Source: a virus. From it: 64,000 nucleotides of DNA. The stretch is taken from the UHGV virus genome UHGV-0210098; one strand, written 5' to 3'. Below, in pieces: positions 4,576 to 53,937 of this stretch. A program made the translations under genes and the position numbers. Below the pieces are notes generated by a model. It ran no database searches, was not told where the DNA came from, and saw nothing but the letters and a program-made list of their open reading frames with translations. Each line of letters opens with the position of its first letter. The first letter of the stretch is position 1.

Positions 4576-4615
4576 GTAATCCAAAAGTTAAAGATGTGAT
4601 GCAAAGGTAGGTGTT

Positions 4616-4623: not shown

Positions 4624-4657
4624 CTCAATAATTATAACTTTTTAATCACATCAAGAC

Positions 4658-5155: not shown

Positions 5156-5168
5156 AACATTACACACA

Positions 5169-6380: not shown

Positions 6381-6391
6381 AAGACAAGATT

Positions 6392-35198: not shown

Positions 35199-35834
35199 AT
35201 GGTATATAACATTCACGATGTAATGCGCGATGTCCGCGTATGCCTCGACCAAAACATGACGAGCGAACAGTTGTTGCAGACTGACGATATAGACACACTT
35301 GCCCTTGATGATATAATCAGAAGCAAGATTTTGGAAGCAGTTGTCAGAGTGCATACCAACGCTCCGACATATCTGTTGGAGCAGGGTCACAACTTCGGCG
35401 ATGCCGTGTATTGGGGTGACCTTGAAAGCGGTTGGGTGTTGTTGCCGCAGGACTTCATGCGCCTAATCGTTTTTGAAATGAGCGATTGGGAGCGAGCTGT
35501 TTTCACGGCCATAAGCACCACCGACCCGGAATATGAGTTGCAGCGTCAGCGCATCAAAGCATTGCGCGGCACCGCACAGAAGCCGGTATGTGTAATCTCA
35601 GTGCGGCCAGAGGGAAGAGCGTTAGAGTTCTACTCATGCAAGAGTGAGAGCGCATACGTTCGCCGTGCGCAATATCTTCCTTACCCGAAGATAGATAAGG
35701 ACGAGGGCATAGACATCTGTGAACGCTGTTATACAGGCGTGGTGTATGCCGCAGCGTCATTAGTATTACTCACATTGGGCGAGGCCGAGAAGTCATCGGC
35801 ACTCTCCGAAATATCTAAAACAGCATTACAATGA
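35199..35834 (+). CDS. Hypothetical structural protein (211 aa).
   Basis: ATG-initiated. The stop overlaps the start of the tail-fibre gene (ATGA at 35831). Confidence 0.45.
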   Translation: MVYNIHDVMRDVRVCLDQNMTSEQLLQTDDIDTLALDDIIRSKILEAVVRVHTNAPTYLLEQGHNFGDAVYWGDLESGWVLLPQDFMRLIVFEMSDWERAVFTAISTTDPEYELQRQRIKALRGTAQKPVCVISVRPEGRALEFYSCKSESAYVRRAQYLPYPKIDKDEGIDICERCYTGVVYAAASLVLLTLGEAEKSSALSEISKTALQ

Positions 35835-38800
35835 GTTCAATTCCAACAAAACAAATAGATGGTGATGTTGCGGTTGGGCGCAATGTGTCAGCCGGAGGCG
35901 ATGCCAACGTACAAGGTAATGCCCGAATAGGCCACGACTTGGTTGTTGAGGGTTGGCTTGAAGCGAAGAACATCAAAGGGGTAAACAAAGGACTGTTTGC
36001 TACCGTTGCTGCTTTGCGCGAAGCTTATCCCCAACCACATGATGGTTGGTTTGCCGGAGTGTCAGCCTCGGATAAGGACATTGCAGACCTCGGACTCACC
36101 GTCCAACAGGGAAAGGCACTGTTCAGAATGTATGTCGGCAGTGGCGGTGATTGGGTGTGCGAACCTATCGACAAACTCTATGAGATTGTAGTGGACAACG
36201 AGCAAGTAGACAACCTCAGAGACGAATTGTCTACCCTGCGCGGCCAGCATGAAAATCTTGAAAAGCGCGTTGATGCCCACGACACCGAAATCAGCGGTAT
36301 CAAGACACAGCAGACCACACTCGGAAACAGCATCAACACCAACACCGGCAACATCGCAACCCTCAAAGTAAGAGTAGACGGCCACGACACATCTATATCG
36401 AAGAACGCAGCCGCAATCAAGGCTATTACTGATAGCATTGGTGCGCCTAATGGTATTGCCCCGATAGATGAGAACGGCCATATTCCAACCCGTTTTATCC
36501 CCGGGGCAATGGATGATGTCAAAGAGTTTGACGGTTTTGTCGAAGTATCTACAATAAATGCCGCTTCATTGACAGGTGAAGTTCTTGTCATGTTCAACAC
36601 CACGTCAAGGACATTTGTTGCGTGTGCCAAGAATACCATACCTCCACAGTATGCCAATAATTGGATAGGAGCAGAAAACTACGGTGACTTTTCTATCAAT
36701 GGCCGTATGCCACAAGATGATAAAGTCTACGTAGACCGTTCTACCAATAAAACCTATCGTTGGAGTGGTAGCCGCATGGCTGTTATCGGCACTGACCTTG
36801 CACTTGGCGAAACCGAGAACACCGCATATCCCGGTAACAAGGGTAAAGCAAATGCAGAAAATATAGCGTTACTCAAAAAGGCATTCTCAATTACCACGTT
36901 TGTAAACATCAACGAATTGTTTGAGAGTACCGGCAGCATGACATTTACGGATGTCGTTACGCTGCTTGACAGCGTAACAGAAGTGATTAAGCCCGGTAGC
37001 GTTGTAACATACCTCGACACGGAAAACGGTTGGAAGTCATTGCAATTTATAGGAAACGACCCCGACAACGGCATAGGTTTCGATGAAAATTGGAAAGCGT
37101 TTGGTAACGGTTCATCTGTAGGAAACTGCTACAATGTAACCGCCGCTCGACTTGCCAACGGTGATGAATTGCCGACCAATCCACCGACATACGACACAAA
37201 GCAGAGTGCCATTGAGTATGCTATTGCTAAGGGAGCAGTCAGCATCGGTGTTCAAATCACTTTTGCAGCAAGTTCCAAAGGTTGGCGAACATTCCAATAT
37301 ATCGGACTTAGCGAAGATGCCGATAGTTATTCCAACCTTGACAATTGGCTTGATGTAGCCGGTCAAAGCGCAGGAGAGGAAACTATACTCAACATCAACG
37401 AACTTTGCAAGGAACAGACAGGAAGTAGCGAATACTCTTTGCTGAGTGCTGTTGCAGCCTTGCTCAAGTTGTGTGAGAGCAAGGGTATTGACTATTTTAA
37501 GGACGGCCTTGTTATTACTTACTGCGTTAATGCCGGTGAACACGTATGGGAAGCAAAGCAACTACTTGACAAGGCAAGTGCCGATAATTCCGAAGCATGG
37601 AAAGATTTCGGTGGTGGTGGCAATGACCTTGAGGCAAACGATGTGCCGACCGAGGGAGGTAAAGACGCATTCAGTACCGGCGGCGCATACGAGCGCATGA
37701 TAGTAGACTTCGAGGAAAGTTTCAGCGAGGACGGTAATTCCAAAACCTATCAGCCTGTAAATGCAAAGAGAAAGCCAATAGGCAGTCCCATTACCGTACC
37801 TCTCGGCGGTGGAGGAGGCAGCACAGATGCAACCTCATTCGCAGTGCGCTTTGAGAGTCAGACAATTTACGGCGCAGCAGGAGGCAAGATAATCGGACGA
37901 TTTGCAGCCCGAAGCGTTACGCGCATGGGCGAGGAAGAAGTCGTAAACAACATTACCGAAATATCAGTCAGTGATGCTAATACCGGCGTATTGCTCAAGA
38001 CAGAAATTCTCACCAACGAGCGCAGTTCTGCCTCACTACAAGATTTCAAGTTCTCAGTAGACTTCACAGATTGGTTTGACGGTGCCGGGCAGCGCAGCTT
38101 CATCGTTGCCGTAAAAGACCAAGAAAGCAACGTGCGCCGTGTTGATGTAAGCGTGAACTGCGTTGATGTTACTGTTGAAATATCCAAGGCACTGAATGAA
38201 TGTCGTATTTCTACCGGTGCAGGTATGACAACTCTTAATAGTTTCTACATCTTTCCGCGCAACACCCTCGGAGGAGCAGGAGGCGGTATAGATGCTATCA
38301 TTGAAATTCTGTGGGATGGAGAATGGAAGGAACTCGGCAGAGCCAACATCCAAAAGACATTCTCGCAGGACATCAGCATAAATCCTACCAACGTACTCGG
38401 CGGCGGCGAAAAAATGCAGCATGGCTCATATTTGCTCCGCATACATGGCTATGCACCACAGGCAAAGGTTACCGGCAACTATGTCTATACCTCAATAATG
38501 TGCATAGATAGTTCTAAGTCCACAGAGCCTATTGTGTCAATCCGATACGATGCAAATACCTATGACGAAGAACTGAATGGCACTGTTGCGCTATACGATA
38601 CAGCCATATTGCAGGTAGCCGCGTACACCGCTGCAAGTATCAGTGGCAATACGCAGGTATCAGTCAAAGCCAACGGAGAAACGATACAGACATTCAATGC
38701 TGCATCTTCCTCAACCTACCAAGTAAAGTATCAAATACAGGGCTATACCAATGGCGACAACATCGAATTTGTTGCAGAAGGAACGTGGACAGAGGCCAAT

Positions 38801-41800
38801 GGTAAGAAACACAGAGGCCAAAGCCACACAATCAATGTTACGGTCGATGGAAGTGCAATAGATGTGCAACTGAAAGGTGGCGCAGCTTTTGCCTACGACT
38901 TCGCACTACGAACCAATGCGGATGTGGACAAGACCATCAAAGACAACAATGTTACGATGTCTGTAACCGGCGCAAATTGGCGTACTAACGGTTTTGTTCA
39001 GTACCTTGGGCAAAATTCTCTGCGCATTGCCGAGAACATGAAAGCCACAATCCCATACTATCCTTACTCCAAGCAGACTAACGAGAGCGCAGGAAACGCT
39101 GTGCAATTTTCCTTTGCCACTGACAATATCAAGGATAAAGACGCCTTGCTCATGCACTGTTACGACCCTGCCACCGGCACCGGCTTCTATGTCAAAGGAA
39201 ACGTGGCCGGCATATATTGCTCTAAAGGTGTAAAACATCAGCGACAGGAGCGCAAGTTCCGAAGCAAGGAGCAAATCACTATGGCAGTAGTTGTAGAACC
39301 TGCGAGCCGGGCATACGAGCGTGGTAATGAAAAATACTCCACCATTAAGATGTACCTCAACGGTGAGGAGGTCGCTTGTTTGGGTTATATACCAGGACAG
39401 AACGCAATCTCGCAGAACAAGCCCATCATGTTTGACGGTACGCAGGGCGACCTGTATCTCTACTACATCATGGCATACGAGAGTTACTATGAGTGGTCGC
39501 AAGCCTTTAACAACTATCTTGCAAAACAAACCAATGTAACTGCAATGATGGCCGAGTTTGAAAGCGAAGATGTGCTTGACACACTAAACCGTCCGAGCCT
39601 CGACAAACTCAAAGCAAAGGGTATGCCGTATTATGTTGTGGTGGCTCCGCAGAAAGTGTTTGATGAATTTGACAGTGATACCAACACGTCTACCAAATTC
39701 ACCTGCACCCTGTTCTACTTCAACCCTCAGCACCCAGAGTTGAACTTCATGGCCACCAACGTACAGTGGCGCAGACAAGGAACTACATCGGCGAAACGAC
39801 CAATTAAAAATGACCGTTTCTATCTCAACAAGCCCGTCAATAAAGCGGACAAGATTGTTATCACGCTGCTCAATCCAAACGAGGACACCGAACTCGGACG
39901 GAAGGCCATTGCACTTGCCGCCAAGAACTATGTACTTGTTCAACCTAATGCAATCCCCGTTCAGATTATTACCGTCAAGGTAGACTTTTCAGACAGCAGC
40001 AACGCAAACGATTGCGGCGTATGCGACATGATGAACAACACGTTTAAGGCAATGGGCAGCGCATATCAGACACCTGCCCAAAGAGCCTATGACGGAACAT
40101 TCACCAAAGGCGACCTGCATATAGAGGGATGTCAAATGGACCACTCGACCAAGAACCATCCTATTGCTGCTTTCCGTGCCACAAACGAACAACTGACAGA
40201 CGCATGGTTTCATGCGAAAGGCAATTGGAAAGAGGATAAGGGAGAACAACTTGCACTCGGTTTCAAAGACACACCCGGCTATAATAAAGGCTGCTTGAAC
40301 TATGGTGATTTCATAGAGTTCTTCGGTAATCGCAATGAAACACTCTCGCAAATTGAGGCACGTTTCAAGACAACAGACGGTTTAGACACAGATAGCATCT
40401 ACCTGTTGAGCCAATACTGCGGTCGTGACTATCTCATCATGCGCCATAATGGTACAGCATGGCAGCGCAGTACCGGCTCAATGAAACAAGTAGGCGGGAA
40501 ATGGGTAGTTACCGGCGATGTCCTTAACCCTGTTACCGGCTTTGAGTTGCTCTCTTATCAAGGTTTCTGCTGGTGGAAAGGAGTATCGAGCGTTGACGAT
40601 ATGATGAAGATGGAGGCCGATAAATCCTCATGGGTTCAGAAACTCGTCAATAGCGGTGATGTGTCTGCCGACACATTCCCGAAGTGGACGCAATACTTTG
40701 AATGCATGGTAGACGACGACCAATTGCAGATTGACCTTGCATACGGTCGCAAAGTTCCATACGAACTTTACAGAATGTTGAGGTTCTGCCACGACTGCGA
40801 CATGATTGCATCCGTAGAAGGTAAAGAAAACCGTTGGCAGATAATCGAGAACACCACAAAGATGGCGAATTGGAGAAACAATCTGTGGCAATACGTATCG
40901 CCGCAGAGCCTGTACGCCTATACATTGTTCACCGATTATCTTGCAGCCACCGACCAACGCGCCAAGAATATGCAGCCTATGTGGTTTTTGGAGGACGGCC
41001 AGAGTGTTACCAACGGTGTCTATTCTGCCGAACACGCCGTGAGAATGTATCTCAACAAGGTATATGACTGCGACACCTGTAACGGCAAGGACAATGACGG
41101 CGGTTGCACCGTAGATCCCGAAGCAGACCCCAACCGCATGACTGACGACAACTATGTCAATCCATACGCAGGTTATGGTTCAATCCTGTTCAACAATGTG
41201 GCCATCGTTCCAACTGTTTATCTTGACGCAACACACAGCGGAAGTCAGCAACTTTCACTCGGAACTGTTGCAGCCGCCATGCGCTCTGCAAAGACCAATG
41301 TGGACGGTGTGGACATGGTGCCGTTCTCCCCGGAGGGCGCACAATACTTCTTCGTTGAAAAGCGTCTGAAGTTTTGGAAGAAACTCATATCGTCCTTTGA
41401 CGGCGAACGTAAGTACATCGAGAGTGTAGGCACGAGTGATGATATTTACTTCTATGCTCTGCAAGGCTTGGGACTTACAGCCCTGCCGCAGTTCATCGAA
41501 CAGCGTTGGCGCATCCGTGACGGTTACTATCAGACCGGCCAATTCTTCAGTGGTGTGTTGAGTGGCCGTACATCATGTGCAAGCAGTAACGCGCGTATCC
41601 GTATCGTTGCCGCAATGACCGGCTATTTCGGTGTAGGCCATGATGCAAGCGGCCAACTTGACGAGGTAGTGTTCCTCGAAGCAGGACAGGAGCATTACTT
41701 TACAAAGTTCAGCCACACAGAGTATGCCTTGCTCTACATCTATCAAGCAGACCGCATCAAAGAGATAGACTTGAGCGAGATAAGCCTTGACAGCAGTTTC

Positions 41801-44167
41801 AACTTCCAAGTAATGAAACTTGCTGAGAAGATTATCATCGGAAGCGAAAGCAGACAGGATGTATCAATCGGTGCCGCCGTCCCTATCAGTTCTCTTCCTC
41901 TCGGGCAATTGCCGTTCCTTCGTGAACTCGACACACGCAACACAACCGTTGCGAGCATTGACGCGAGCAGTTGCCCACGAATAGAGATAATCAGAGCCGG
42001 AAATTCGCCGCTGCAAAACTGCCTTATTGCAGAAACAGCTCCTATCAGCGTGTTGGAATTGCCCGACACCATGACGGAAATTTCTCTTGTCAATCTTCCC
42101 AACCTGTCATATCCCGGCGGTCTGACTATTGCAGGATTGAGCAATATAACAAAACTCATGATTAGCGGTAGCCCGAAGATTGACGCAATGACAATGATTA
42201 AGAACATCGTTGACGAGGCCGGACAGATTAAAAGTATCGGACTACGCGATGTGAATATCACGGCCAGCGTTGAAATCCTGCGCTCTTTGAAAGCAACCAA
42301 TGCCTACGGCCTCGATGAATACGGAAACGACATCGCGGCCGATAAGAATGTCGAAGGCGTAGGAAAACAATGCTCCGGCCTTACAGGCCGTTGGATATTG
42401 TCAGAACTGATAAAGGATGAGGACGAAAACGGAGTAGCCGGTCTTAACAGCCTCAAAGCCTACTTCCCGGCTCTTGACCTCTACAACTCTCAGTTCTCTA
42501 TCGTGAAATGTTCTGATGTGGTGGATGCACCGGGTGAGAAATGGGGAAACCTTGACAACCTGACCGGCGCACTGTTCTCAGCCGCCTATAAGCGTTCGGG
42601 ACATCCATTGCGCATCTTTGAAAACACTTGGGCGTGCCGTGCAGACTACAACGCAAAGTTGCAACGCCTTGAACTACGCCGATTGAGCCGTGCCAACTTC
42701 AATTTCATGCTTGACGGCAGCGAAATTGACCTTGCAGACGTAGCCGGTGCCGGTTATGACATCATGCACTTACTTGGTCATGGTTGGTATAAAGGCGTGA
42801 GCGACTATAAGAACCAAGACAAATACTATATATGGTCGAGCTGCGACAATGAACCTCTCTCAACGGCCAACGTGAGAAAGATATACAGCCTCGCAGACCT
42901 ACTGTATTCCGATAGTCAAGGTGTATATGTAGATGCAGACACCACAAACGGCATGAATGTCGCAGAACTACTCGGACAAGGTTCTAATGTCAATGTCTAC
43001 CGTGTGGATGTAGACGGTATGAAGCAAGTACGTTGGCCGGGCATGAACAATCAGACAATGGGCTGCGTGTTCACAGATGCAGACGGAAAAGTCGTTGGAG
43101 TGTTCCAAATGGCCGTAAGCAATACGAACTTTGACTTCACAATAGGCAACTACATCTACGAGAAAGTTCCGCAGGGTGCAAAATGGTTCTACTTTACCAC
43201 GTTCAAAGACCTTGACAATAGCGAAGTTCATGTTGTAGATAGTGACAGCATCGAAGCAATCGAGCCGGAATGGACGGAGATTAAAACTCCGAAAGCACTC
43301 AATGAGCAGATAGAGGACGGTTCTGTGTTCGGTACATACCCGATTACGATTGACGGCCTCGGTATGCCGCGAAGCATCAGCAGTGGACGCTCACGCAAAG
43401 GCACAGGCACATCTACCATAAATCCTAATTGGCTTTATGATGACGATGGCAATGCTGTAGAGTTGCCGACCGGCACAATCAACTACTGCATGAAAGATTT
43501 CCAAAACCTTGCAAGGCTCAGAGGCAAGGGGTATCAACTCCAAGACTATGAGCAACACAAGGAAACATCAATCCTGTGGTGGGCTTTGAACGGACACAGC
43601 GATGAGCAAAGCATTGTCGGTCGTGGTCAGCATGACGGCCTCCTCAACCAAGCCGATAATATCGGTATGGCAGACACACAAAGTAGTAGTAACATTTGGA
43701 ATTCAATACTCGGCATTAAAGGTTATGTCGGATGTGACTCAGAATGGTTAGACAACCTTGCGCTTAATGTAACCTCATTCAAAGAGTTCTTCAAAAACAA
43801 AGGCGTTGAGGTGTCGTCATTCCCTCTTGACGGAGTTGCACACATATTCAATCCTATCACAGGAGAAGAACGTACCGTGCAATGTCTGACAACCGGCGGA
43901 GGAAACTGTATCGTTCGCCTTGTGCATGGTGCCAAGTGTGATATATTACCGTCACGAACAATCGGCGACACAAGCCAATACATTGTGGCATTTTGCGCCG
44001 GTTGGTGGTACACACATTCGCGCAGCCGCGTGGTTTTGCGGTCGGGCGGCGGTTCGAGTGCGTTTAGCGGCCTCGCTTGTGCGAGTGCGAATCACGCTTG
44101 CTCGTACTCGTACGCGAGCTTCGGCGCGCGTCTGGCCTTCCGTGGGCGACTAATCGTTCTCTCGTAG
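35831..44167 (+). CDS. Giant (2778-aa) tail-fibre or receptor-binding protein that is the DGR target. The C-terminal ~40 residues (C-type-lectin-like fold) are encoded by the VR.
   Basis: N-terminal fibre-like region with coiled-coil heptads and GIAPIDENGHIPTRFIPG. The last 120 nt before the stop are homologous to the TR, with adenine-specific mismatches. Confidence 0.8.
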   Translation: MSSIPTKQIDGDVAVGRNVSAGGDANVQGNARIGHDLVVEGWLEAKNIKGVNKGLFATVAALREAYPQPHDGWFAGVSASDKDIADLGLTVQQGKALFRMYVGSGGDWVCEPIDKLYEIVVDNEQVDNLRDELSTLRGQHENLEKRVDAHDTEISGIKTQQTTLGNSINTNTGNIATLKVRVDGHDTSISKNAAAIKAITDSIGAPNGIAPIDENGHIPTRFIPGAMDDVKEFDGFVEVSTINAASLTGEVLVMFNTTSRTFVACAKNTIPPQYANNWIGAENYGDFSINGRMPQDDKVYVDRSTNKTYRWSGSRMAVIGTDLALGETENTAYPGNKGKANAENIALLKKAFSITTFVNINELFESTGSMTFTDVVTLLDSVTEVIKPGSVVTYLDTENGWKSLQFIGNDPDNGIGFDENWKAFGNGSSVGNCYNVTAARLANGDELPTNPPTYDTKQSAIEYAIAKGAVSIGVQITFAASSKGWRTFQYIGLSEDADSYSNLDNWLDVAGQSAGEETILNINELCKEQTGSSEYSLLSAVAALLKLCESKGIDYFKDGLVITYCVNAGEHVWEAKQLLDKASADNSEAWKDFGGGGNDLEANDVPTEGGKDAFSTGGAYERMIVDFEESFSEDGNSKTYQPVNAKRKPIGSPITVPLGGGGGSTDATSFAVRFESQTIYGAAGGKIIGRFAARSVTRMGEEEVVNNITEISVSDANTGVLLKTEILTNERSSASLQDFKFSVDFTDWFDGAGQRSFIVAVKDQESNVRRVDVSVNCVDVTVEISKALNECRISTGAGMTTLNSFYIFPRNTLGGAGGGIDAIIEILWDGEWKELGRANIQKTFSQDISINPTNVLGGGEKMQHGSYLLRIHGYAPQAKVTGNYVYTSIMCIDSSKSTEPIVSIRYDANTYDEELNGTVALYDTAILQVAAYTAASISGNTQVSVKANGETIQTFNAASSSTYQVKYQIQGYTNGDNIEFVAEGTWTEANGKKHRGQSHTINVTVDGSAIDVQLKGGAAFAYDFALRTNADVDKTIKDNNVTMSVTGANWRTNGFVQYLGQNSLRIAENMKATIPYYPYSKQTNESAGNAVQFSFATDNIKDKDALLMHCYDPATGTGFYVKGNVAGIYCSKGVKHQRQERKFRSKEQITMAVVVEPASRAYERGNEKYSTIKMYLNGEEVACLGYIPGQNAISQNKPIMFDGTQGDLYLYYIMAYESYYEWSQAFNNYLAKQTNVTAMMAEFESEDVLDTLNRPSLDKLKAKGMPYYVVVAPQKVFDEFDSDTNTSTKFTCTLFYFNPQHPELNFMATNVQWRRQGTTSAKRPIKNDRFYLNKPVNKADKIVITLLNPNEDTELGRKAIALAAKNYVLVQPNAIPVQIITVKVDFSDSSNANDCGVCDMMNNTFKAMGSAYQTPAQRAYDGTFTKGDLHIEGCQMDHSTKNHPIAAFRATNEQLTDAWFHAKGNWKEDKGEQLALGFKDTPGYNKGCLNYGDFIEFFGNRNETLSQIEARFKTTDGLDTDSIYLLSQYCGRDYLIMRHNGTAWQRSTGSMKQVGGKWVVTGDVLNPVTGFELLSYQGFCWWKGVSSVDDMMKMEADKSSWVQKLVNSGDVSADTFPKWTQYFECMVDDDQLQIDLAYGRKVPYELYRMLRFCHDCDMIASVEGKENRWQIIENTTKMANWRNNLWQYVSPQSLYAYTLFTDYLAATDQRAKNMQPMWFLEDGQSVTNGVYSAEHAVRMYLNKVYDCDTCNGKDNDGGCTVDPEADPNRMTDDNYVNPYAGYGSILFNNVAIVPTVYLDATHSGSQQLSLGTVAAAMRSAKTNVDGVDMVPFSPEGAQYFFVEKRLKFWKKLISSFDGERKYIESVGTSDDIYFYALQGLGLTALPQFIEQRWRIRDGYYQTGQFFSGVLSGRTSCASSNARIRIVAAMTGYFGVGHDASGQLDEVVFLEAGQEHYFTKFSHTEYALLYIYQADRIKEIDLSEISLDSSFNFQVMKLAEKIIIGSESRQDVSIGAAVPISSLPLGQLPFLRELDTRNTTVASIDASSCPRIEIIRAGNSPLQNCLIAETAPISVLELPDTMTEISLVNLPNLSYPGGLTIAGLSNITKLMISGSPKIDAMTMIKNIVDEAGQIKSIGLRDVNITASVEILRSLKATNAYGLDEYGNDIAADKNVEGVGKQCSGLTGRWILSELIKDEDENGVAGLNSLKAYFPALDLYNSQFSIVKCSDVVDAPGEKWGNLDNLTGALFSAAYKRSGHPLRIFENTWACRADYNAKLQRLELRRLSRANFNFMLDGSEIDLADVAGAGYDIMHLLGHGWYKGVSDYKNQDKYYIWSSCDNEPLSTANVRKIYSLADLLYSDSQGVYVDADTTNGMNVAELLGQGSNVNVYRVDVDGMKQVRWPGMNNQTMGCVFTDADGKVVGVFQMAVSNTNFDFTIGNYIYEKVPQGAKWFYFTTFKDLDNSEVHVVDSDSIEAIEPEWTEIKTPKALNEQIEDGSVFGTYPITIDGLGMPRSISSGRSRKGTGTSTINPNWLYDDDGNAVELPTGTINYCMKDFQNLARLRGKGYQLQDYEQHKETSILWWALNGHSDEQSIVGRGQHDGLLNQADNIGMADTQSSSNIWNSILGIKGYVGCDSEWLDNLALNVTSFKEFFKNKGVEVSSFPLDGVAHIFNPITGEERTVQCLTTGGGNCIVRLVHGAKCDILPSRTIGDTSQYIVAFCAGWWYTHSRSRVVLRSGGGSSAFSGLACASANHACSYSYASFGARLAFRGRLIVLS
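44021..44140 (+). repeat. DGR variable repeat (VR), in frame at the 3' end of the tail-fibre gene. It encodes RSRVVLRSGGGSSAFSGLACASANHACSYSYASFGARLA.
   Basis: A 120-nt alignment to the TR at a constant +326 offset. All 18 mismatches occur at TR adenines (A to G, T or C). Confidence 0.9.
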
Positions 44168-44346
44168 CACGACTGCTCGCCACTCGTCCTTTTCGTTTGG
44201 TGCAGAGCCGTGGGTTTATCCCCGGCTGCTGCACCTTATTTTTCTCGCGAAGCGAGTTTTTTATATTTGTTTCATACGGCAATATGCTGATTTTTCATGA
44301 TATTTTAGTAATTTTGCAGCGGATTTACTCCAAGGCGGAAAACCCT

Positions 44347-44466
44347 CACAGCCGCGTGGTTTTGCGGTCGGGCAACAATTCGAATGCGAATAGCGGCCTC
44401 GCTTATGCGAATGCGAATAACGCTTGCTCGAACTCGAACACGAACTACGGCGCGCGTCTGAACTTA
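44347..44466 (+). repeat. DGR template repeat (TR), rich in AAY codons. It encodes HSRVVLRSGNNSNANSGLAYANANNACSNSNTNYGARLN.
   Basis: Non-coding copy of the VR located between the target gene and the RT. Adenines sit at every VR-variable position. Confidence 0.9.
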
Positions 44467-44611
44467 CTAAGGTTAAAATCGTGTGACCCTGCACGGCAAC
44501 GAGATTGCCAAAGCACTCCTCGAAGGGTTTGAGCCTCGGCAACAGCAATTCTTTTCCAATCTTGAAAACATTGGAGAGTTTTGGAAAGCCGAAAAATGAC
44601 GATAACCTTAA

Positions 44612-44638
44612 TGTGGGGTGTCGCTACGGCGACCCCCA
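44612..44638 (+). other. Stem-loop between the TR and the RT start (GTGGGG-T-GTCGC tacg GCGAC-CCCCAC). A candidate structured element of the DGR RNA.
   Basis: Inverted repeat read directly (6 + 5 bp with a one-nt bulge). Confidence 0.35.
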
Positions 44639-44668
44639 CGGGACCGGAAGGCCATTAAACAATTGACA

Positions 44669-46108
44669 ATGGACGCAGTAACTGCCCATAACATCAAATA
44701 TGATTTGATACCGCAGGAATGCTCCAATCTTCCTGCGGCGTTGAAACGTGCAGGTTTCCCAATCAGCAACATATTAGACGAGATAACCTCGGACGAGAAT
44801 TTGTCTGAGGGTTTTGATTATGTAATCAGTCATTTGGAAACCGCACAACAACGCGAAAAGTATTACTCTAAACTTGACCCTGCAAAAGGGCAACGCGACA
44901 AGCGACAACTCCTTGCCCGACTAAAAAAAGAACTCCAAGACGGTACATTTAGAATACGCCCGGAGAACATCAGAGAAATGATTGTCGATGATGGCCCAAA
45001 GGTGCGGATTGTTCAAGCTCCGAGAGTATATCACCGTATCGGATGCCATGTGATAATGGTAGTCGTGGAGAAGTATGTTAATCCCACTCTCATCACGAAC
45101 ACAGCCGCAAGTATCAAAGGCCGTGGTATGCACTGGCTATTTCATCGCATAGTAGATGATTACAATGCCGTGCCGGAGTTGATGCAGGATTATTATCAGA
45201 ACGACATACAAGGCTATTACGACAATATCGAGCAAGAGGGAATGAAATCCGTTATAAGGCTGTATATTGCAGACCTTGTTGTGTTGGGCTTCCTTGATAA
45301 CTTCATCACTTTAATGCCGAGAGGACTGTCAAAAGGCTTGCGGTCAAGTCAATGTTTCGCCAACCTCTATTTGTCGCCGGTTGACCATGTGATGTGCTGC
45401 CATGTTCCTAAATATATAGCAGAGGACGGCGAGGTTAGGTATCTTTACCAAAGATATATGGACGATGCGGCCATGTGGGGAGCAGAGAAAAGGCAACTAT
45501 GGAAACTGCGCGACATATACCATTCGGAAGTTGCCAAATTGGGGTTGACCGTAAAGAATACCGAAGCGATAAGACCGATAACCGAGGGGATAGATTACCT
45601 CGGTTTCGTTTTTTATGGTACTCATTCAAGACTGAGAAAGCGTACAAAGAAAAAGGCCGCTCGTCATTTGTCGGAGGTAAAATCACGCAAACGGCGGCAA
45701 GAACTTATCGGCTCATTCAAGGGCATGGCCTGTCATGCCGATTGCAAGCATTTGTATTATAAACTAACACATAAATATATGAAGAAATTCGGAGAGTTAG
45801 GCATAGCCTATAAGCCGGAGGACGGTAAGAAGCGTTTTCCCGGTAAGGTAGTACCTATCCGCAGTATCGCGAACAGACCTATCGAGATACACGATTATGA
45901 AGCAGACCTCACCACGGCACACGGAGAGGGACGCTACCTTGTCAGCTTCAGAAACGTGGACGATGGCATATTCAATAAGTTCTTCACTGCAAGTAAGGAA
46001 ATGCAGAATATCCTTGACAAAATCAGCGACTTGGAGGACGGATTTCCGTTTGAAACCACAATAGTCATGGACTACTATGACGGAAAGACAATACCCAAGT
46101 TCACATGA
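44669..46108 (+). CDS. DGR-type reverse transcriptase.
   Basis: RYMDDAAMW (RT motif C, YxDD) and GLRSSQCFANLYLSPVD (the DGR-specific SQ motif 4). The ORF-track start at 44618 is GTG; the first ATG is at 44669. Confidence 0.9.
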   Translation: MDAVTAHNIKYDLIPQECSNLPAALKRAGFPISNILDEITSDENLSEGFDYVISHLETAQQREKYYSKLDPAKGQRDKRQLLARLKKELQDGTFRIRPENIREMIVDDGPKVRIVQAPRVYHRIGCHVIMVVVEKYVNPTLITNTAASIKGRGMHWLFHRIVDDYNAVPELMQDYYQNDIQGYYDNIEQEGMKSVIRLYIADLVVLGFLDNFITLMPRGLSKGLRSSQCFANLYLSPVDHVMCCHVPKYIAEDGEVRYLYQRYMDDAAMWGAEKRQLWKLRDIYHSEVAKLGLTVKNTEAIRPITEGIDYLGFVFYGTHSRLRKRTKKKAARHLSEVKSRKRRQELIGSFKGMACHADCKHLYYKLTHKYMKKFGELGIAYKPEDGKKRFPGKVVPIRSIANRPIEIHDYEADLTTAHGEGRYLVSFRNVDDGIFNKFFTASKEMQNILDKISDLEDGFPFETTIVMDYYDGKTIPKFT

Positions 46109-46161
46109 TAGTCAAAAGATAAAGAAGCGGTAACGCATATAGGTAGTAACTTTGCCGTACT

Positions 46162-46635
46162 ATGAACAAGGTATATGGCACATCAGTACGGCAGGACGGC
46201 TTACAACAGGTAGGCCGCAGGACTTTTACGCTCTTTTACGGACTATACACCGATGAGCGCGGCGGCACTTATGAATATCGCCACATCTTCGACCATAAAC
46301 CCACATGGGAAGAAGTTAAGGCCGTGTTAGTTGAGGCCATCAATGAGCATACACATGAGACTATCATCAATGGCTTTATATGGAACGGACTACGTATATG
46401 GCTCTCTGACGAAAACCAACGCAACTTTATGATGATAGAGAAACTCACAAACGAGTCTTATCCTCTTAAAGTCAAAATCAACGAGGACGCAGACGGCCAG
46501 CCAATCTATTACACCTTTGTGAGCGAAGAAGAGTTTGCCGCTTTCAGCAAACTTGGTTCACAGCACGTTATTGACACATGGGCTGCAGGTTGGAAAGAAA
46601 AGGACAACCTCGACCCAAAGACATTCGGATGTTAG
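46162..46635 (+). CDS. Hypothetical protein (157 aa) downstream of the RT. It is not Avd-like.
   Basis: ATG-initiated with no recognisable motif. Followed by a GC-rich segment and T6 (46662-46692). Confidence 0.45.
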   Translation: MNKVYGTSVRQDGLQQVGRRTFTLFYGLYTDERGGTYEYRHIFDHKPTWEEVKAVLVEAINEHTHETIINGFIWNGLRIWLSDENQRNFMMIEKLTNESYPLKVKINEDADGQPIYYTFVSEEEFAAFSKLGSQHVIDTWAAGWKEKDNLDPKTFGC

Positions 46636-46767
46636 ATTAGACCACATATATACATGAAAAAGAACGCTCGACCGTGAGGCCGGGCGTTTTTTGTAACTCA
46701 AAAGATAAAGAGAAGCAACGACAAGTACAGGCTACCTTTGCATCAAACTCAAAAATTTATATACAAT

Positions 46768-47031
46768 ATGAAGATAGCAAAAGACAAAATGCAGCACATT
46801 ATCGTCTGCGCAATCGTGGCGGTAGTTATCGCCTTAGTAGTAGCCTACACCTGTGCGCTTCCGTTACCGTCCTGCGTGGCAGGTTTTTTAGGAGCAACGG
46901 CGTGTGGTTTGGGTAAGGAATACGGCGACAGCAAGGCGCACGGAAACACTTGGAGTTGGCCGGACATCGCCGCAGACATGGCCGGAGCAGCCATTGGATG
47001 CCTTGCAGGTTTTGTAGCACCCTTAATCTAA
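46768..47031 (+). CDS. Small membrane protein, a class-II holin-like candidate (two transmembrane segments).
   Basis: First ATG at 46768; the track start at 46738 is TTG. Hydrophobic segments IIVCAIVAVVIALVVAY and AGAAIGCLAGFVAPLI. Lies immediately upstream of the lysis genes. Confidence 0.4.
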   Translation: MKIAKDKMQHIIVCAIVAVVIALVVAYTCALPLPSCVAGFLGATACGLGKEYGDSKAHGNTWSWPDIAADMAGAAIGCLAGFVAPLI

Positions 47032-47040
47032 TCAGACGGC

Positions 47041-47517
47041 ATGAACGAAACCAACAATCTTTTCTCGGCTACAATGGCCGCATTAGGGATGGCACTTTCC
47101 GGGTTCTACGGGCACCTTGCCCCTTGGCTCATGCTTGGCATGGTGTTGGTGATGGTAGACCTCCGTTTCGGCCTCCTCGCGGCCAAAGCTCGTAAAGAGG
47201 ACATCCGTCCCTCGCGAGCATGGCGCAGGACGTTCAATAAGATGGTGGATTACCTCTGTTGGGTTACACTCGCTGAGGTATGCAGTAGGACTTTCGGAAT
47301 AACAATCGGTGCGCCGGTTGTGAGTATGGCCATGCTGTTTATTATCTACGGCATTGAATTGAACTCATGCGTCAATAATTACCTTGAGTACAAGGGTATC
47401 AAAAAAAAGTGGAACTTCTTCAAACTTGTAGGCAAGGAAAATTTGCTTGAAGATAGCAACACAGAGTCAGAAACTGACAAATCCAATGACAATGGGAAAA
47501 ATAAAAGTCTTGATTGA
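47041..47517 (+). CDS. Multi-pass membrane protein, a holin-like candidate.
   Basis: Three or four hydrophobic helices. Its stop overlaps the amidase start by 32 nt. Confidence 0.45.
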   Translation: MNETNNLFSATMAALGMALSGFYGHLAPWLMLGMVLVMVDLRFGLLAAKARKEDIRPSRAWRRTFNKMVDYLCWVTLAEVCSRTFGITIGAPVVSMAMLFIIYGIELNSCVNNYLEYKGIKKKWNFFKLVGKENLLEDSNTESETDKSNDNGKNKSLD

Positions 47518-48094
47518 CAACGGCCACGGCGAGGACACGCCCGGGAAATGCAGCCCCGACAAGCGGCTGAAAGAATACCGCTATTGCCGTGAGATAGCAC
47601 AGCGCGTCAGCAGAGAGTTGTCGCTCCGTGGTATAGACGCATTACTCCTTACGCCGGAAACCACCGACACACCACTCAAAGAACGTGTGCGTAAAGCCAA
47701 CGCATGGGCGCGCAAACTCGGTTCAAAGAATGTGGTGCTTGTGTCGATACACAACAATGCCGCCGGCTCAGATGGCCAATGGTATACGGCCTCCGGCTTC
47801 TCTGTATTCATCAGCAAGAACGCATCGGCCAACTCCAAACGCCTGGCACAAATCTTCACAGAGAACGCCACGGCAATGGGACTTATGGGCAACCGCAGTG
47901 TTCCTGCCGAAAAGTATTGGGTTCAATCGCTTGCCATGACACGCGACACTATTTGCCCGGCAGTGCTCACAGAGAACCTTTTCCAAGACAATGAGGAGGA
48001 GGTGAAATTTCTGCTTTCGGAGGATGGAAAGAAAGCCATTACAAACTTGCACGTTAATTCAATCATTCAATACATCAACAGTATTAAGTCATGA
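47486..48094 (+). CDS. N-acetylmuramoyl-L-alanine amidase (Amidase_3 family) endolysin.
   Basis: KVLIDNGHGEDTPG, VSIHNNAAGS and TENLFQDNEEE match Amidase_3 zinc-binding and catalytic motifs. The in-frame ATG is at 47486; the track start at 47447 is TTG. Confidence 0.85.
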   Translation: MTMGKIKVLIDNGHGEDTPGKCSPDKRLKEYRYCREIAQRVSRELSLRGIDALLLTPETTDTPLKERVRKANAWARKLGSKNVVLVSIHNNAAGSDGQWYTASGFSVFISKNASANSKRLAQIFTENATAMGLMGNRSVPAEKYWVQSLAMTRDTICPAVLTENLFQDNEEEVKFLLSEDGKKAITNLHVNSIIQYINSIKS

Positions 48095-48336
48095 ACAGAG
48101 AAGAAGAAATTGTTGCTAACAAGCAACTGAGAAAGGACATTGACGAGATTATCCAAAGAGTTAAGGAATTGCCTGCTTCGCGTGAGCGTAGTCTTTCCAT
48201 CACCAAACTACAAGAGGGCGTTATGTGGCTTGGTATGGATTTGAAACGACTTAACAGCGACAATCCCTATCCTTCAAGTAAAGACCCCTCTACAGGTTCA
48301 AAGATTGAACCAACTGCAGACGGTCTCAAACTCTAA
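48091..48336 (+). CDS. Hypothetical small protein (81 aa).
   Basis: ATG overlaps the amidase stop (ATGA). Confidence 0.35.
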   Translation: MNREEEIVANKQLRKDIDEIIQRVKELPASRERSLSITKLQEGVMWLGMDLKRLNSDNPYPSSKDPSTGSKIEPTADGLKL

Positions 48337-48348
48337 AAATCAATCGTC

Positions 48349-48951
48349 ATGAAAGCAAAACATTATGTGCTTGCAGCCCTTGCAGGACTTGTAACATTCT
48401 TTGTCGGTTACTTCATCGGCAAAGACCGCACGGAGAAGCCTCCCGGAACCGTTGTGGAAACAAAAGAAACGACCGTGGACACCATACCGTACCGCGCACC
48501 GATGCCGCAGTCGGAGTTGGCGTTAGGCACACACCTTTATACTCTGCCGACTTATCGTTTCATCGGTGGAGGGTCAGGAGGCGAGCCGCGACCACGTGGG
48601 GACAATGACATCATTCGTGAGGATACCATTCATGCAGGCACCATCAAGACTTTGCCATATGGCACCGGCGCAGGGGGTGAACCTCGATGTTGCGAGGACA
48701 GTACAATCGTAGAACTTCCCGTTGTTCAACGCCACTATGCCGACAGTACATACGAGGCATGGGTAAGTGGACCGATAGACCCACGGCTCGACAGCGTGAG
48801 AGTATTCGCACCAACAACCATCATCACCAAAAGGGAATGGAAGCCTCCCAAACGATGGCATATAGGAATAACCGCCGGATATGGCTACGGTTCAAAAGGC
48901 TTTCAGCCGTATGTCGGTGTCGGTATTACTTATTCTATATTCAGTTTTTAA
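48349..48951 (+). CDS. N-terminally membrane-anchored protein; a possible spanin or lysis accessory candidate.
   Basis: Single N-terminal transmembrane helix (VLAALAGLVTFFVGYFIG) next to the lysis cassette. The remainder is Gly/Pro-rich. Confidence 0.3.
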   Translation: MKAKHYVLAALAGLVTFFVGYFIGKDRTEKPPGTVVETKETTVDTIPYRAPMPQSELALGTHLYTLPTYRFIGGGSGGEPRPRGDNDIIREDTIHAGTIKTLPYGTGAGGEPRCCEDSTIVELPVVQRHYADSTYEAWVSGPIDPRLDSVRVFAPTTIITKREWKPPKRWHIGITAGYGYGSKGFQPYVGVGITYSIFSF

Positions 48952-48952
48952 T

Positions 48953-49480
48953 ATGGAGATAACACTATCAATCAATAAGGACGATGTGATGCAGGAAATC
49001 GCCGTTACCACGGCCTACACAGGTGGGAAGATGGACAATGACGAGAACGCCCTGCACCGCATATCAACAGTAGACGAGGACGAGAACCACCTTGAAAGAT
49101 TTTGGGAGGAAAGCCGAGCCGACATCTGCCAAGAACTTATCGGCCTTGTAACTTTTGAGGGCATGGTAAACGGCATCATCATAAAGCCGAATGACCCGGA
49201 AATTCCGATACAACCCAGCCCCAATGCTTTGCCCCCAATCGTGAAACCGCATTATGAGTTGAGACTTGATGTGTCAAAGTCCTTTGATGAGGCATTACTG
49301 CCAAGCATGAAACTCAGCCTCCGCAGTTTCTTTGTGCATAACATAGTGGCCAAGTGGTATGTCTATACGAACAAAACTGAAGCCGGTGACTATGCAGACA
49401 AGGCGGCCACGCTGCTTGACGACATACACCGCAAGGCCGTATATAAGAAAAAGCCGACACGCCCCACCTACGATGACTAA
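48953..49480 (+). CDS. Paralogous small protein 1 of 3 (C-terminal ...KKKPTRPTYDD).
   Basis: Shares the C-terminal block W(Y/F)V.TNK.(E/D)A..YA(D/N)....LD.....A.YK(K/R)..PTRPTY.D with the next gene. Confidence 0.5.
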   Translation: MEITLSINKDDVMQEIAVTTAYTGGKMDNDENALHRISTVDEDENHLERFWEESRADICQELIGLVTFEGMVNGIIIKPNDPEIPIQPSPNALPPIVKPHYELRLDVSKSFDEALLPSMKLSLRSFFVHNIVAKWYVYTNKTEAGDYADKAATLLDDIHRKAVYKKKPTRPTYDD

Positions 49481-49499
49481 TTTATAAACTTACATCACA

Positions 49500-50012
49500 A
49501 TGGAACAGAAAAAGACCATTACAGTAACGCTTGAGTCGAAGGAAATCAAGTTTGATGTGATGAACAAATCGCACCTCACCGGCCAAGCGCGGAACGCAGA
49601 GGGCAAGGACTATCGTTCCACGGCCTATATGCAAGCGAGTGAGGACGATGAACACGCCTATCAGATACTCCGCTCCATCAGCAATGCTTTTTCGCATCTG
49701 AAGGTGGAACTCGGCGAGTACCTGCATGAGGACGGCTCGACCTCCAACAACCGCATCAACAAGGCCGTGGAGGACGGAGACAAGTTGCAGCTTTCATTCC
49801 TTCTGCCATCAAACTTCAACAACTCGGCTTGCGACAGCCTCGGCGGTATGCTCCACGAGTATATCGTAGACCGTACCCTTTCCGAATGGTTTGTAATCAC
49901 CAACAAGGAAGATGCACAGAGCTACGCCAACCTCGCCACTGATGCCCTCGACAGAGCCAAACAAGCCCTCTATAAGAGGGAAAGACCCACACGTCCAACT
50001 TATACTGATTAA
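49500..50012 (+). CDS. Paralogous small protein 2 of 3 (C-terminal ...KRERPTRPTYTD).
   Basis: See paralog 1. Confidence 0.5.
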   Translation: MEQKKTITVTLESKEIKFDVMNKSHLTGQARNAEGKDYRSTAYMQASEDDEHAYQILRSISNAFSHLKVELGEYLHEDGSTSNNRINKAVEDGDKLQLSFLLPSNFNNSACDSLGGMLHEYIVDRTLSEWFVITNKEDAQSYANLATDALDRAKQALYKRERPTRPTYTD

Positions 50013-50015: not shown

Positions 50016-50573
50016 ATGTACCATATCGGATGCAGCGAGGACTGCTACAACAGCGATGCAGGGAGCAGTAAGGCCACTAAGAAGGTCACATTGACATTCA
50101 AACGTGATGAGCTGCTGTACGACATCAAGAACTACGCCTATATCGAGGGACACGTGTGGGGCGAAGAAAACCAACACGCCCAGCACACCCTCGTTGAAAT
50201 TGGCGAAGAGGGAAATGTCGACCGTGTGAACCGCATACTCGGTGTAGTCCACGCCGCAGCCGTTGAAATGCTTTATCCGTACACCAAGCAAGACCCGGAG
50301 GAGGAAGAAGAAATCGACGACCGTATGTGGGCACCGACAGACTACAAGATAGTCATGAAAGTACCGGTCACGATGTCACGCACCACTCTCCACCTGCTTA
50401 ACAAACTCATCCATGAGTTTATGGTTTATCGTGTGATTTATGATTGGCTAAGCATCACGCACCCCGAAGCCGCGCGAAATTGGCTCGACAAGGCACTCGA
50501 AGCCCAGGAGGAAATAAACAGTGTCAAGAACAGCCGCACAGGTGTGTTGAGGCGACCATCGCACCCATTTTAA
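50016..50573 (+). CDS. Paralogous or related small protein 3 of 3 (more divergent; C-terminal ...WLDKALEAQEEI...RRPSHPF).
   Basis: Related C-terminal helix (LSITHPEAARNWLDKALEA versus LATDALDRAKQALYK). Last gene on the plus strand before the strand switch. Confidence 0.4.
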   Translation: MYHIGCSEDCYNSDAGSSKATKKVTLTFKRDELLYDIKNYAYIEGHVWGEENQHAQHTLVEIGEEGNVDRVNRILGVVHAAAVEMLYPYTKQDPEEEEEIDDRMWAPTDYKIVMKVPVTMSRTTLHLLNKLIHEFMVYRVIYDWLSITHPEAARNWLDKALEAQEEINSVKNSRTGVLRRPSHPF

Positions 50574-53531: not shown

Positions 53532-53902
53532 AACGAGCTGCGGTATATGATTGTGATGTACTTAATGTTGTCGCGTATAACCTCCATGCCGCAGGGACAA
53601 CGCAAACGAGTTCCCTTTACTTCGGCACCGGAAAGGACAGCCCTTGCCAACTTCTTGGAGCAGGTGCGGAACGTGCCTTTTCCGTGAGCCGTAGCCCATA
53701 CACGTCCTATGTGCCGACCTGTATATTGGCCGGCACGTAGTTTGACATAGAGGTAGAGTTCGCCATACTCATACGCAATGTCTATCACATCGCCAACGGA
53801 CAGTGATAGTTTCCGGGCAACGTGGGCTGATATATCAATCTGGCCGGAGGCATCGAATGATATGTCGTGCTTGCGAGAGTTTGACAATATACTTTTCATC
53901 AT
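53528..53902 (-). CDS. Hypothetical protein (about 124 aa).
   Basis: The track start at 53908 is TTG; ATG at 53902 (MMKSILSN...). Overlaps the start of the 945-aa gene by 4 nt. Confidence 0.4.
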   Translation of the reverse strand: MMKSILSNSRKHDISFDASGQIDISAHVARKLSLSVGDVIDIAYEYGELYLYVKLRAGQYTGRHIGRVWATAHGKGTFRTCSKKLARAVLSGAEVKGTRLRCPCGMEVIRDNIKYITIIYRSSL

Positions 53903-53937
53903 TGGCAAAATTAGTTAGGATGATTGGTAAACCCACG

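Follow-up and report, generated by a model that had tools for sequence, protein, structure and literature searches.

The diversity-generating retroelement (DGR) of phage BPP-1 depends on the accessory protein Avd, which is essential there (PMC5758913, PMC12875486). Among 372 DGRs surveyed, however, avd was found in just 74%; about 26% were without it, including a whole Bacteroides lineage (Wu et al. 2018, PMC5758913). The DGR of Hankyphage (p00, BK010646) was described in 2018 (PMC6199706), and its diversification of the tail fibre has been shown by experiment (PMC12135933). The present analysis concerns a 64,000-nucleotide stretch of the virus genome UHGV-0210098 (the window), in which an earlier note, made from the letters alone, had recognised at 43990-46108 a complete DGR consisting of a variable repeat (VR), a template repeat (TR) together with a reverse transcriptase (RT). 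This description holds, as the repeats differ at TR adenines only, the VR lies in frame in a target gene, and the RT groups with DGR enzymes. We regard it as highly probable that the locus is an intact, recently active DGR of the Hankyphage type that works without Avd and resides in a temperate phage of Bacteroidales. The assignment to the Hankyphage type follows from an RT that is 41% identical over its full length (tblastn) and from the same order of VR, gap, TR, spacer, RT and DUF4376 gene. The element is thus a further representative of the avd-less DGRs of the Hankyphage type and not a new kind of DGR. The absence of avd is already known in DGRs, and the novelty that the earlier note implied for an Avd-less element was overstated.

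Repeat pair, target gene and recent diversification

The repeats and the gene they act on are as follows.

35831-44167, + strand: DGR target gene, an open reading frame (ORF) coding for a putative tail-fibre or receptor-binding protein of 2778 amino acids (aa); full-length match to phrog_14959 (function unknown)
44023-44141, + strand: VR; mutagenised part about 44023-44122, 3' boundary made up of GGCGCGCGTCTG (44123-44134) and fixed differences at 44135, 44136 and 44140 of the type seen at sites for the initiation of mutagenic homing (IMH)
44349-44467, + strand: TR; 28 adenines and 11 AAY codons, IMH*-type 3' end at 44461-44467; identical in the related loci L008 and L009

VR and TR align without gaps in a 326-nucleotide (nt) register, at the place where the earlier note had put them. 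A search with the 5' 25-mer finds two copies of the repeat in the window (0.00 expected), and a third copy of either repeat end was sought across the 64 kb without result, so that the window holds no detectable VR copy beyond this pair. Aligned by program over 44021-44140 and 44347-44466, the limits drawn in the earlier note, the repeats show 19 mismatches, and 19 of 19 fall on TR adenines (11 A>G, 5 A>T and 3 A>C). The note had counted 18. Its statement that adenines alone are affected is correct, and with 28 adenines in the 119 nt of the TR the hypergeometric probability of this outcome is 1.4e-15. The three 3'-most differences (AA at TR 44461-44462 versus GC at VR 44135-44136, and A at TR 44466 versus C at VR 44140) come directly after the GC-rich GGCGCGCGTCTG that is common to both repeats. 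Because they are constant across all related VRs, they represent a fixed boundary asymmetry of the IMH/IMH* type and not mutagenesis. Once these three are excluded, about 15-16 of 25 mutable adenines are substituted, which is compatible with the density of about 50% per round reported for other DGRs.

The VR lies in frame and codes for residues 2731-2771 of the 2778-aa target. Read in the same frame, the TR contains its 11 AAY codons, and its adenines are distributed over codon positions 1, 2 and 3 as 14, 13 and 1, the sole adenine at position 3 falling in IMH*. The earlier note had likewise described a TR rich in AAY codons, an in-frame VR at the C-terminus and a gap of only about 200 nt between the repeats; the gap measures 207 nt and is free of conserved ORFs. 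One ORF that overlaps the TR (44077-44532, 151 aa, isoelectric point (pI) 10.5) does not qualify as a gene. It owes its lack of stops solely to the TR being a copy of coding sequence, relatives keep anything between 4 and 333 nt of it open, and Pfam gives no match.

The target gene has the capsid genes on one side and the lysis cassette on the other. Its C-terminal 400 aa are homologous to the DGR target of Hankyphage (25% identity, E 4e-23), and the homology takes in the VR-encoded segment and the ...GxRLAFRGRL... tail. The earlier note called the protein a tail fibre. The location of the VR at the extreme C-terminus is borne out, and the fibre identity is plausible, with gene position and the Hankyphage annotation pointing to it; domain and PHROG searches detected no tail-fibre domain directly in the 2778 aa. 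The variable domain of the Hankyphage target was assigned to the C-type lectins by Benler et al. 2018 (PMC6199706). A similar fold is suggested for the protein studied here, the sole support being its homology to the Hankyphage target. A PDB profile search with the last 240 aa gave noise only and no match, and the AlphaFold2 (AF2) model of this segment, built from a 19-sequence alignment, has a predicted local distance difference test score (pLDDT) of 33, too low for a fold to be read from it.

Relatives of the RT occur at 71 loci in IMG/VR and in 41 species-representative genomes, and 2,361 of 8,000 scored protein candidates are homologous at E <= 1e-5. The genome matches belong mostly to Bacteroidales (Muribaculaceae, Duncaniella, Prevotella and Bacteroidaceae), and a member of the Muribaculaceae or another Bacteroidales bacterium is the likely host. 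Relatives among deposited phages appear at the protein level only; a megablast search with 43000-47000 returned no match there. At 55 of the 71 viral loci, a simple detector finds an adenine-biased repeat pair 5' of the RT. Closer analysis of 49 loci shows a VR-TR gap that spans 115-226 nt and is free of ORFs except in L002, L003 and BS-TP4, where a toxin-antitoxin pair is inserted, and in L040, which has an 89-aa ORF; the TR-RT spacer is typically 140-210 nt long across relatives. The inserted pair consists of a RelE-like toxin and an XRE antitoxin (L002 5045-5666, L003, and BS-TP4 at L072 5010-5670). It stretches the gap to about 835 nt and leaves the TR/VR relationship undisturbed.

Comparisons among these relatives show that information flows from TR to VR and that near-identical phages diverge at adenine-templated sites only, as far as can be read from their sequences. 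In L001, L002, L004, L006 and L007, changes of the TR at positions other than adenine recur in the cognate VR, and the adenine sites differ freely. The most telling pair is the window and L008, its closest relative with a VR. Over the 1500 nt 5' of the VR the two are identical at 1499 positions, the 126 nt 3' of it agree at 126/126, and the TRs are the same. Within the VR, 86 of 87 other sites are identical, as opposed to 6 of 25 adenine-templated ones; the remaining 19 of 25 differ. Since the adenine sites have diverged within flanks that are 99.9-100% identical and next to the same TR, this contrast indicates recent mutagenic retrohoming. The heterogeneity at adenine-derived VR positions that the earlier note expected in populations is thus seen between near-identical phages (19/25 adenine sites versus 1/87 others), not in reads.

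Reverse transcriptase and template RNA

The RT and the elements around the TR are listed here in the order of their coordinates.

44199-44256, + strand: GC-rich bulged hairpin (44199-44235) with a T-run, then a small hairpin (44244-44256); 58 nt after the VR, fold z-score -4.1
44309-44316, + strand: Bacteroidota-type -7 promoter box TAATTTTG, predicted to serve the TR-spacer-RT transcript
44340-44346, + strand: 5' strand of a long-range helix, AAACCCT, just 5' of the TR and after the conserved GGYRGA
44477-44647, + strand: spacer RNA, Rfam RF03068 'RT-3 RNA'; 51 bits against a gathering score of 40.5, model positions 1-148 of 148
44524-44530, + strand: 3' strand of the long-range helix, AGGGTTT, directly before the conserved, invariant GAGCCTCGGCAAC
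44669-46108, + strand: DGR RT, 479 aa; core formed by residues 1-370, YMDD at 45455-45466, SQxFAN motif within 45335-45373

The conserved start of the RT is the ATG at 44669, not the GTG at 44618. In keeping with the earlier note, the ORF carries YMDD and a DGR-specific motif: the segment GLRSSQCFANLYL lies at 45335-45373, and the DGR-typical GLRSSQCFANLY is present. The best PDB sequence match (phmmer) is the Bordetella DGR RT, 8ub7_A, at E 2.3e-14 over residues 34-370, whereas RTs of group II introns and of the retron type do not score better than E >= 5e-3. The AF2 model (pLDDT 80.6) leads to the same neighbours. Its top five Foldseek matches are RT entries of the Bordetella DGR ribonucleoprotein (E 4e-17, template modelling (TM) score 0.81), and group II RTs enter the list at E 1e-11. 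The protein also matches phrog_1423 'reverse transcriptase' (E 9e-78), and its Pfam RVT_1 score stays below threshold. NCBIfam has no DGR-RT model and was used solely as a negative membership test, in which the RT remained under all cut-offs (TIGR04416, 50.8 versus 300 bits; Drt2, 30 versus 390; Drt3a, 29.5 versus 200; retron St85, 23 versus 235). Membership in the DGR clade, which the earlier note had proposed over a group II, retron or Abi affiliation, is thus supported by sequence and predicted fold, the assignment being one by best matches and family cut-offs. Among Bacteroides phages, BS-TP4 (50%) and BKO1-TP3 carry the RTs closest in sequence to this one (48-50% identity by tblastn).

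The spacer between TR and RT is an RNA known from Rfam. Weinberg et al. 2017 listed RT-3 without an assigned function, recognised RT-10 as the BPP-1 spacer and speculated that other RT motifs are parts of DGRs. RT-3 RNA occupies the same position in Hankyphage (146.6 bits), in BS-TP4 and in 7 of 9 other relatives tested, and by its sequence and location this orphan motif can be identified as a DGR TR-RT spacer. The subclade to which the window belongs is without the first stem-loop directly 3' of the TR.

Part of the spacer appears to pair across the TR. The heptamers AAACCCT and AGGGTTT would form a 7-bp helix that closes a loop around the TR, and its strong covariation shows this pairing as far as sequence comparison can. 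In 36 distinct sequences, 95.2% of the cells are standard pairs and 7 of 7 pairs display compensatory changes. Double changes occupy 90 cells, as compared with 22.8 +/- 6.2 in shuffled data, where 0 of 500 shuffles reach 90, and pairing falls to 20-54% when the register is slid by 1-3 nt. The helix was spotted by eye and then tested on segments whose anchors are sequence motifs and do not depend on pairing, after manual correction of four mis-anchored rows and without L020, L022 and L042. RNAalifold, run on the raw MAFFT alignment of the spacers, recovered one hairpin only. The helix conflicts with the small GG...CC hairpin of the Rfam model and is the better supported of the two. Directly 5' of the clamp strand, all relatives share a GGYRGA motif (44334-44339; GGCGGA here and mostly AAGGTAGA elsewhere), which probably lies near the 5' end of the DGR RNA.

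The consensus of the Bacteroides -7 promoter element is TAnnTTTG. Of 45 distinct loci, 25 have a box of this form 26-44 nt 5' of the TR (with two outliers to 66), the background expectation being 0.03 per window. This suggests a dedicated promoter, with a transcript start that would lie just before the clamp strand. Farther upstream, GC-rich hairpins follow the VR in most related loci, many of them with a GAGCC...GGCTGCT core. The scan of the relatives considered even lengths and single hairpins only and mis-scored the window, L008 and some other loci, and the value given above for the window is therefore a fold z-score. The hairpin is probably a terminator of the target gene and/or an inverted repeat that aids retrohoming. 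The latter comes into consideration because a T-run is present in only 15 of 43 relatives, and in BPP-1 an inverted repeat after the IMH promotes retrohoming (PMC5758913, PMC12875486).

Accessory functions in an element without avd

Two protein segments next to the RT core have to be considered once Avd is missing.

45779-46105, + strand: C-terminal extension of the RT, residues 371-479; beta-rich with one helix, starting at the invariant M371; phrog_19665 match
46162-46635, + strand: acidic 157-aa ORF (pI 5.2), probably of the DUF4376 family, directly after the RT; weak DUF4376 match

In a canonical DGR of the BPP-1 type (Architecture B), avd, next to the TR, codes for a basic four-helix-bundle protein of about 128 aa. 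No such gene is detectable from the sequence of this element, in agreement with the earlier note. Over the whole 64-kb window, about 30 small ORFs gave no match to PF22296, PF05635 or NCBIfam models of Avd even at E <= 10, with BPP-1 Avd scoring 123 bits against PF22296 (bAvd) as the positive control. A phmmer search with BPP-1 Avd through 9,950 open segments of the window and the related loci ended at a best E of 2.2, and about 49 related loci show no recognisable Avd homologue between VR and TR.

The RT core ends where the Bordetella enzyme does. The 328-aa bRT aligns to residues 34-370, and the extension, which is modelled as five strands and one helix (pLDDT about 80-88), is absent from it. 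The extension has 26 invariant columns, including GKKRFPG and KFFT; no relative was found in Pfam or among PDB sequences. An exhaustive HMMER search of 1.84 billion representatives returned 141 homologous representatives, some of which are the C-termini of proteins of 430-580 aa, and many are proteins of 102-109 aa that match from residue 2. The genomic context of several families was checked in IMG/VR. P0200 was discarded as a stand-alone domain, as 73 of 73 loci of its family show an in-frame fusion, and for P0232 no viral locus was found in IMG/VR. In contrast to the P0200 artefact, the families P0246, P0219 and P0245 are true separate ORFs on the same strand as the RT, 5-30 nt (sometimes 0.4-1 kb) 3' of an RT of the 328-aa type that is 30-39% identical to bRT. 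Their module of about 105 aa is a separate ORF in 37 of 40 loci with an RT and fused in 3 of 40.

These loci (L198-L240) are compact phage DGRs made up of two targets of about 158 and 125 aa, each with a VR, followed by the TR, a bRT-like RT of 328 aa and the ORF of about 105 aa. In L198 (2947-5312), the two small targets contain VR1 and VR2, the TR occupies 3813-3932 and the RT 4031-5017, and the 103-aa ORF (5001-5312) starts within the end of the RT gene, in a different frame. Avd was sought in L198-L240 as well; tblastn gave no match to bAvd, and 10 ORFs located just 5' of the RTs have no Avd Pfam match. Conversely, no homologue of the module was found in the Avd-dependent BPP-1. Because the module is fused to the RT in one lineage and tightly linked to it in another, it probably shares a function with the RT, such a pattern being a classic indication of this, and we propose it, from gene fusion and neighbourhood, as a candidate substitute for Avd. 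In its widest form, the proposal is that the module of about 105 residues is a so far undescribed DGR accessory protein that replaces Avd in many Avd-less phage DGRs and that, together with the TR clamp and RT-3 RNA, it provides a second, more compact solution to cDNA synthesis in which the enzyme is a single polypeptide. This wider claim is tentative, and we give it somewhat less than an even chance.

A working model can be assembled from these parts. Transcription from the promoter just 5' of the TR would yield an RNA that begins with a short 5' flank and continues through the 119-nt TR and the RT-3 spacer into the RT message. Pairing of the 5' flank with the spacer in the covarying 7-bp helix would place the TR in a closed loop. 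The RT, by analogy with its homologues and judging from the substitution pattern, would copy the TR into cDNA and misincorporate opposite adenines. This cDNA would then replace the VR by way of the GC-rich, IMH-like 3' boundary, probably aided by the downstream hairpin, and up to about 13 codons would be rewritten within the last 48 residues of the 2778-aa putative receptor-binding fibre. Avd would not take part, and the fused RT domain of about 108 residues may supply the accessory function.

The protein encoded after the RT is the other candidate for such a function. Its ORF scores 18.7 bits against DUF4376 (PF14301), below the gathering threshold of 25, whereas the corresponding Hankyphage protein (161 aa) reaches 29.7 bits and exceeds the threshold. 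Both are related over their full length (29% identity, E 7e-22), more distant homologues of the ORF carry PF14301, and the records of BKO1-TP1 and BS-TP4 name the gene after the RT 'DUF4376 domain-containing protein'. A homologue follows the RT in 72 of 72 loci that reach far enough; these proteins have 157-168 aa and a pI of 5.0-5.2. When compared with Avd profiles, the ORF product and its Hankyphage homologue show no similarity, their matches being to DUF4376 only. Avd proteins have a pI of 9.5 +/- 0.7 (PMC5758913), and the statement of the earlier note that the ORF after the RT is not Avd-like is confirmed. In GenBank PV107405, the Hankyphage gene (40044-40529; L115 4832-5317; pI 5.0, DUF4376) bears the note 'Avd'. 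The protein is acidic and lacks a match to Avd profiles, and this label, being unsupported, is probably a mis-annotation. The required tail-fibre chaperone gp27 of Alteromonas phage V22 belongs to DUF4376, and chaperone genes of this family sit just after fibre genes in phages without a DGR (PMC7289586, PMC10579305). The ORF product is more likely a chaperone of the diversified fibre than a factor in reverse transcription, and the more economical reading of the locus is that TR and RT lie between a fibre gene and the gene of its chaperone. It should be noted that Wu et al. 2018 (PMC5758913) described 'CH1', a protein of 160-169 aa and pI 4.7 that is found only in avd-less DGRs (Architecture E1, Lineage 3a). 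The ORF product is probably a tail-fibre chaperone and/or a candidate for this CH1 accessory protein, and not Avd.

An accessory role of the DUF4376 protein in place of Avd, as the CH1 of Wu et al. 2018, would account for its presence after the RT in each of the 72 loci, including those whose RT identity is as low as 41%, for the overlap of its gene with the RT stop in Hankyphage, for the fit of its size and pI to the CH1 description and for the 'Avd' note on its homologue. Nevertheless, it is acidic and not basic and resembles no Avd profile, its Hankyphage homologue passes the threshold of a family of fibre chaperones known from phages without a DGR, and the gene does not occur in L198-L240, Avd-less DGRs of the bRT-like group, which argues against a general requirement. 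All loci with DUF4376 after the RT also share a homologous fibre gene, so synteny cannot separate the two roles. On balance this explanation is unlikely. About equally unlikely is that RT and RNA suffice, that nothing replaces Avd and that the extension serves some unrelated end, for instance stability or association with the virion. C-terminal extensions do occur in about 20% of DGR RTs, and 29% of DGRs lack any accessory gene (Wu et al. 2018, PMC5758913); the extension has no recognisable nucleic-acid-binding signature; and in L008, whose VR is diversified, the RT frame is broken before the domain. However, the high conservation of the extension (26 invariant columns, GKKRFPG among them) and above all the recurrence of the module as a linked, often overlapping gene at the 3' ends of RTs of another lineage (30-39% identical to bRT) would be hard to explain without a shared function.

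Avd might instead be used but have been missed, either as too divergent for the profiles or as encoded by the host. Avd sequences are indeed very poorly conserved, and the window contains three basic, unannotated ORFs of 109-127 aa (3282-3665, pI 11.6; 53528-53908, pI 9.8; 54390-54719, pI 9.4). These lie 8-40 kb from the DGR, however, and match neither PF22296 and PF05635 nor NCBIfam, Wu et al. 2018 (PMC5758913) found no avd elsewhere in genomes with avd-less DGRs, and the avd-less layout is kept over about 49 loci and Hankyphage, which together make this explanation improbable. The view that the cassette is a dead remnant, left by an old duplication with differences that only seem adenine-specific, could appeal to the comparative, not read-level, nature of the evidence for activity in this genome. 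It is effectively refuted by a chance of about 1e-15 for the adenine-only pattern, by the intact RT with its catalytic motifs, by VRs that differ at 19 of 25 adenine sites beside the same TR and within all but identical flanks, and by the passage of TR changes into VRs.

Several points weigh against an intact, recently active DGR in which the RT extension takes the place of Avd. The case for an accessory role of the extension consists solely of fusion and neighbourhood, no recognised nucleic-acid-binding relative of the extension turned up in Pfam or among PDB sequences, and the 'stand-alone' representative P0200 arose from faulty gene calling in what is a fused gene. The L008 RT loses its reading frame ahead of the C-terminal domain; if this break is real, L008 was diversified earlier or the domain is dispensable. 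Avd is poorly conserved, and a very divergent or host-encoded one may be present; the tblastn search with BPP-1 Avd matched Bordetella phages only and is uninformative for distant Avds. Finally, the model leaves the fold of the variable domain unconfirmed (pLDDT 33), and activity in this genome is deduced from comparison with relatives. As to L008 itself, the locus (6001-7436) has a 411-aa RT ORF, its C-terminal domain being found in a different frame (the same is seen in P0034), and its RT is 92-99% identical to that of the window; the frame break may be an assembly error or a recent inactivation.

The element itself is ordinary, a Hankyphage-type, Avd-less DGR of a very abundant family. Its value is as an entry to the question, raised by Wu et al. 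2018, of how mutagenic retrohoming proceeds in the quarter or so of DGRs that lack Avd, and it offers three testable leads: the RNA clamp around the TR, RT-3 as a DGR spacer, and the protein module fused or adjacent to the RT. If the proposal is true, a one-protein DGR enzyme would be attractive for directed-evolution tools, which now rely on bRT plus Avd.

The phage and its place among known systems

To judge from its genes, the window appears to hold an almost complete temperate phage. As part of the overall interpretation it is very probable that the DGR is carried by a temperate phage of Bacteroidales of about 64 kb with a P22-like portal. The landmarks on which this is based are the following.

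1740-3227, + strand: tyrosine integrase (phrog_1)
26807-28786: P22-like portal
32887-34419: SU10-like capsid protein
47041-47517 and 47447-48094, after the DGR: lysis cassette with holin and amidase, respectively
63916-63987, - strand: tRNA-Gln(ttg), at the far end of the window

The tRNA gene at one end and the integrase near the other fit a prophage or attachment-site layout, or else a tRNA borne by the phage. Relatives of this phage sit integrated in chromosomes of Muribaculaceae. A single ORF of 6784 aa (6392-26746, + strand) contains InPase, ddrB-ParB, PBECR1 nuclease, SNF2/helicase C, ResIII and RadC-JAB domains (Pfam), a make-up typical of giant 'polyvalent proteins'. It is preceded by a gene for a weakly T7 gp14-like internal virion protein (4658-5155), and because of this neighbour the 6784-aa protein may be injected with the DNA. 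Just 3' of holin and amidase, an 81-aa ORF (48091-48336, + strand) has the Acb2/Tad1 hairpin domain PF24729 (E 1e-8, above threshold) and is a candidate anti-CBASS/anti-Thoeris nucleotide sponge. Three tandem paralogues of 199, 170 and 185 aa (48881-49480, 49500-50012 and 50016-50573, + strand; phrog_35482 / phrog_19255) also lie after the lysis genes, and 54135-54320 (- strand) may be a fragment of a methylase gene or a frameshifted one.

Of the deposited phages, BS-TP4 (PQ571277) and BKO1-TP3 (PQ571269) are nearest. Their genomes of 64-65 kb have the same gene order, including the DUF4376 and lysis genes, and the records annotate only 'reverse transcriptase', with no DGR repeats marked. Hankyphage shares the arrangement of the DGR in all its parts: a giant target whose VR is C-terminal, a short gap, the TR, an RT-3 spacer (of about 210 nt), the RT and the DUF4376 ORF, whose start overlaps the RT stop there. 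The Hankyphage RT carries the same C-terminal domain, the helix that clamps the TR is kept with compensatory changes, and an Avd homologue is likewise missing. However, Hankyphage is a Mu-like transposable phage of 43 kb with Bacteroides and Phocaeicola as hosts, unlike the phage of the window with its length of about 64 kb, P22-like portal, tyrosine integrase and 6784-aa polyvalent protein, and the sequences of the two are only 25-41% identical.

Within the classification of Wu et al. 2018 (PMC5758913), the element resembles Architecture A1 'TR-RT', or E1 with CH1, of Lineage 3/3A. As in that lineage, avd, HRDC and MSL are absent, target, TR and RT lie on one strand, a small acidic ORF flanks the RT, the RT has a C-terminal extension, and the host belongs to Bacteroidales. 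The fit to Lineage 3 and to CH1 is one by description only (157 aa, pI 5.2, Bacteroidales, no avd). Wu et al. 2018 (PMC5758913) gave the C-terminal extensions neither a function nor a homology.

The comparison with BPP-1 (mtd-avd-TR-brt) reveals the same principle carried out with partly different components. Common to both are the adenine-specific transfer from TR to VR into the C-terminus of a receptor-binding protein, a GC-rich IMH-like boundary, a downstream inverted repeat, a structured TR-RT spacer, a duplex across the TR and the RT fold (TM 0.81 to 8ub7). BPP-1, however, needs Avd (128 aa, basic, encoded between VR and TR), which is not detectable in the element of the window; its spacer is Rfam RT-10 instead of RT-3; and bRT ends after 328 aa, without the C-terminal domain of 108 residues. 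In the Bordetella DGR RNA, the duplex termed 'cPRT Stop' (bioRxiv 10.1101/2023.10.23.563531) has the topology that is seen in the TR-clamping helix. Handa et al. (bioRxiv 10.1101/2023.10.23.563531) found equivalents of cPRT Stop in 207 of 278 DGRs in a survey of Avd-containing elements only. The clamp described here would extend this type of duplex to DGRs without Avd.

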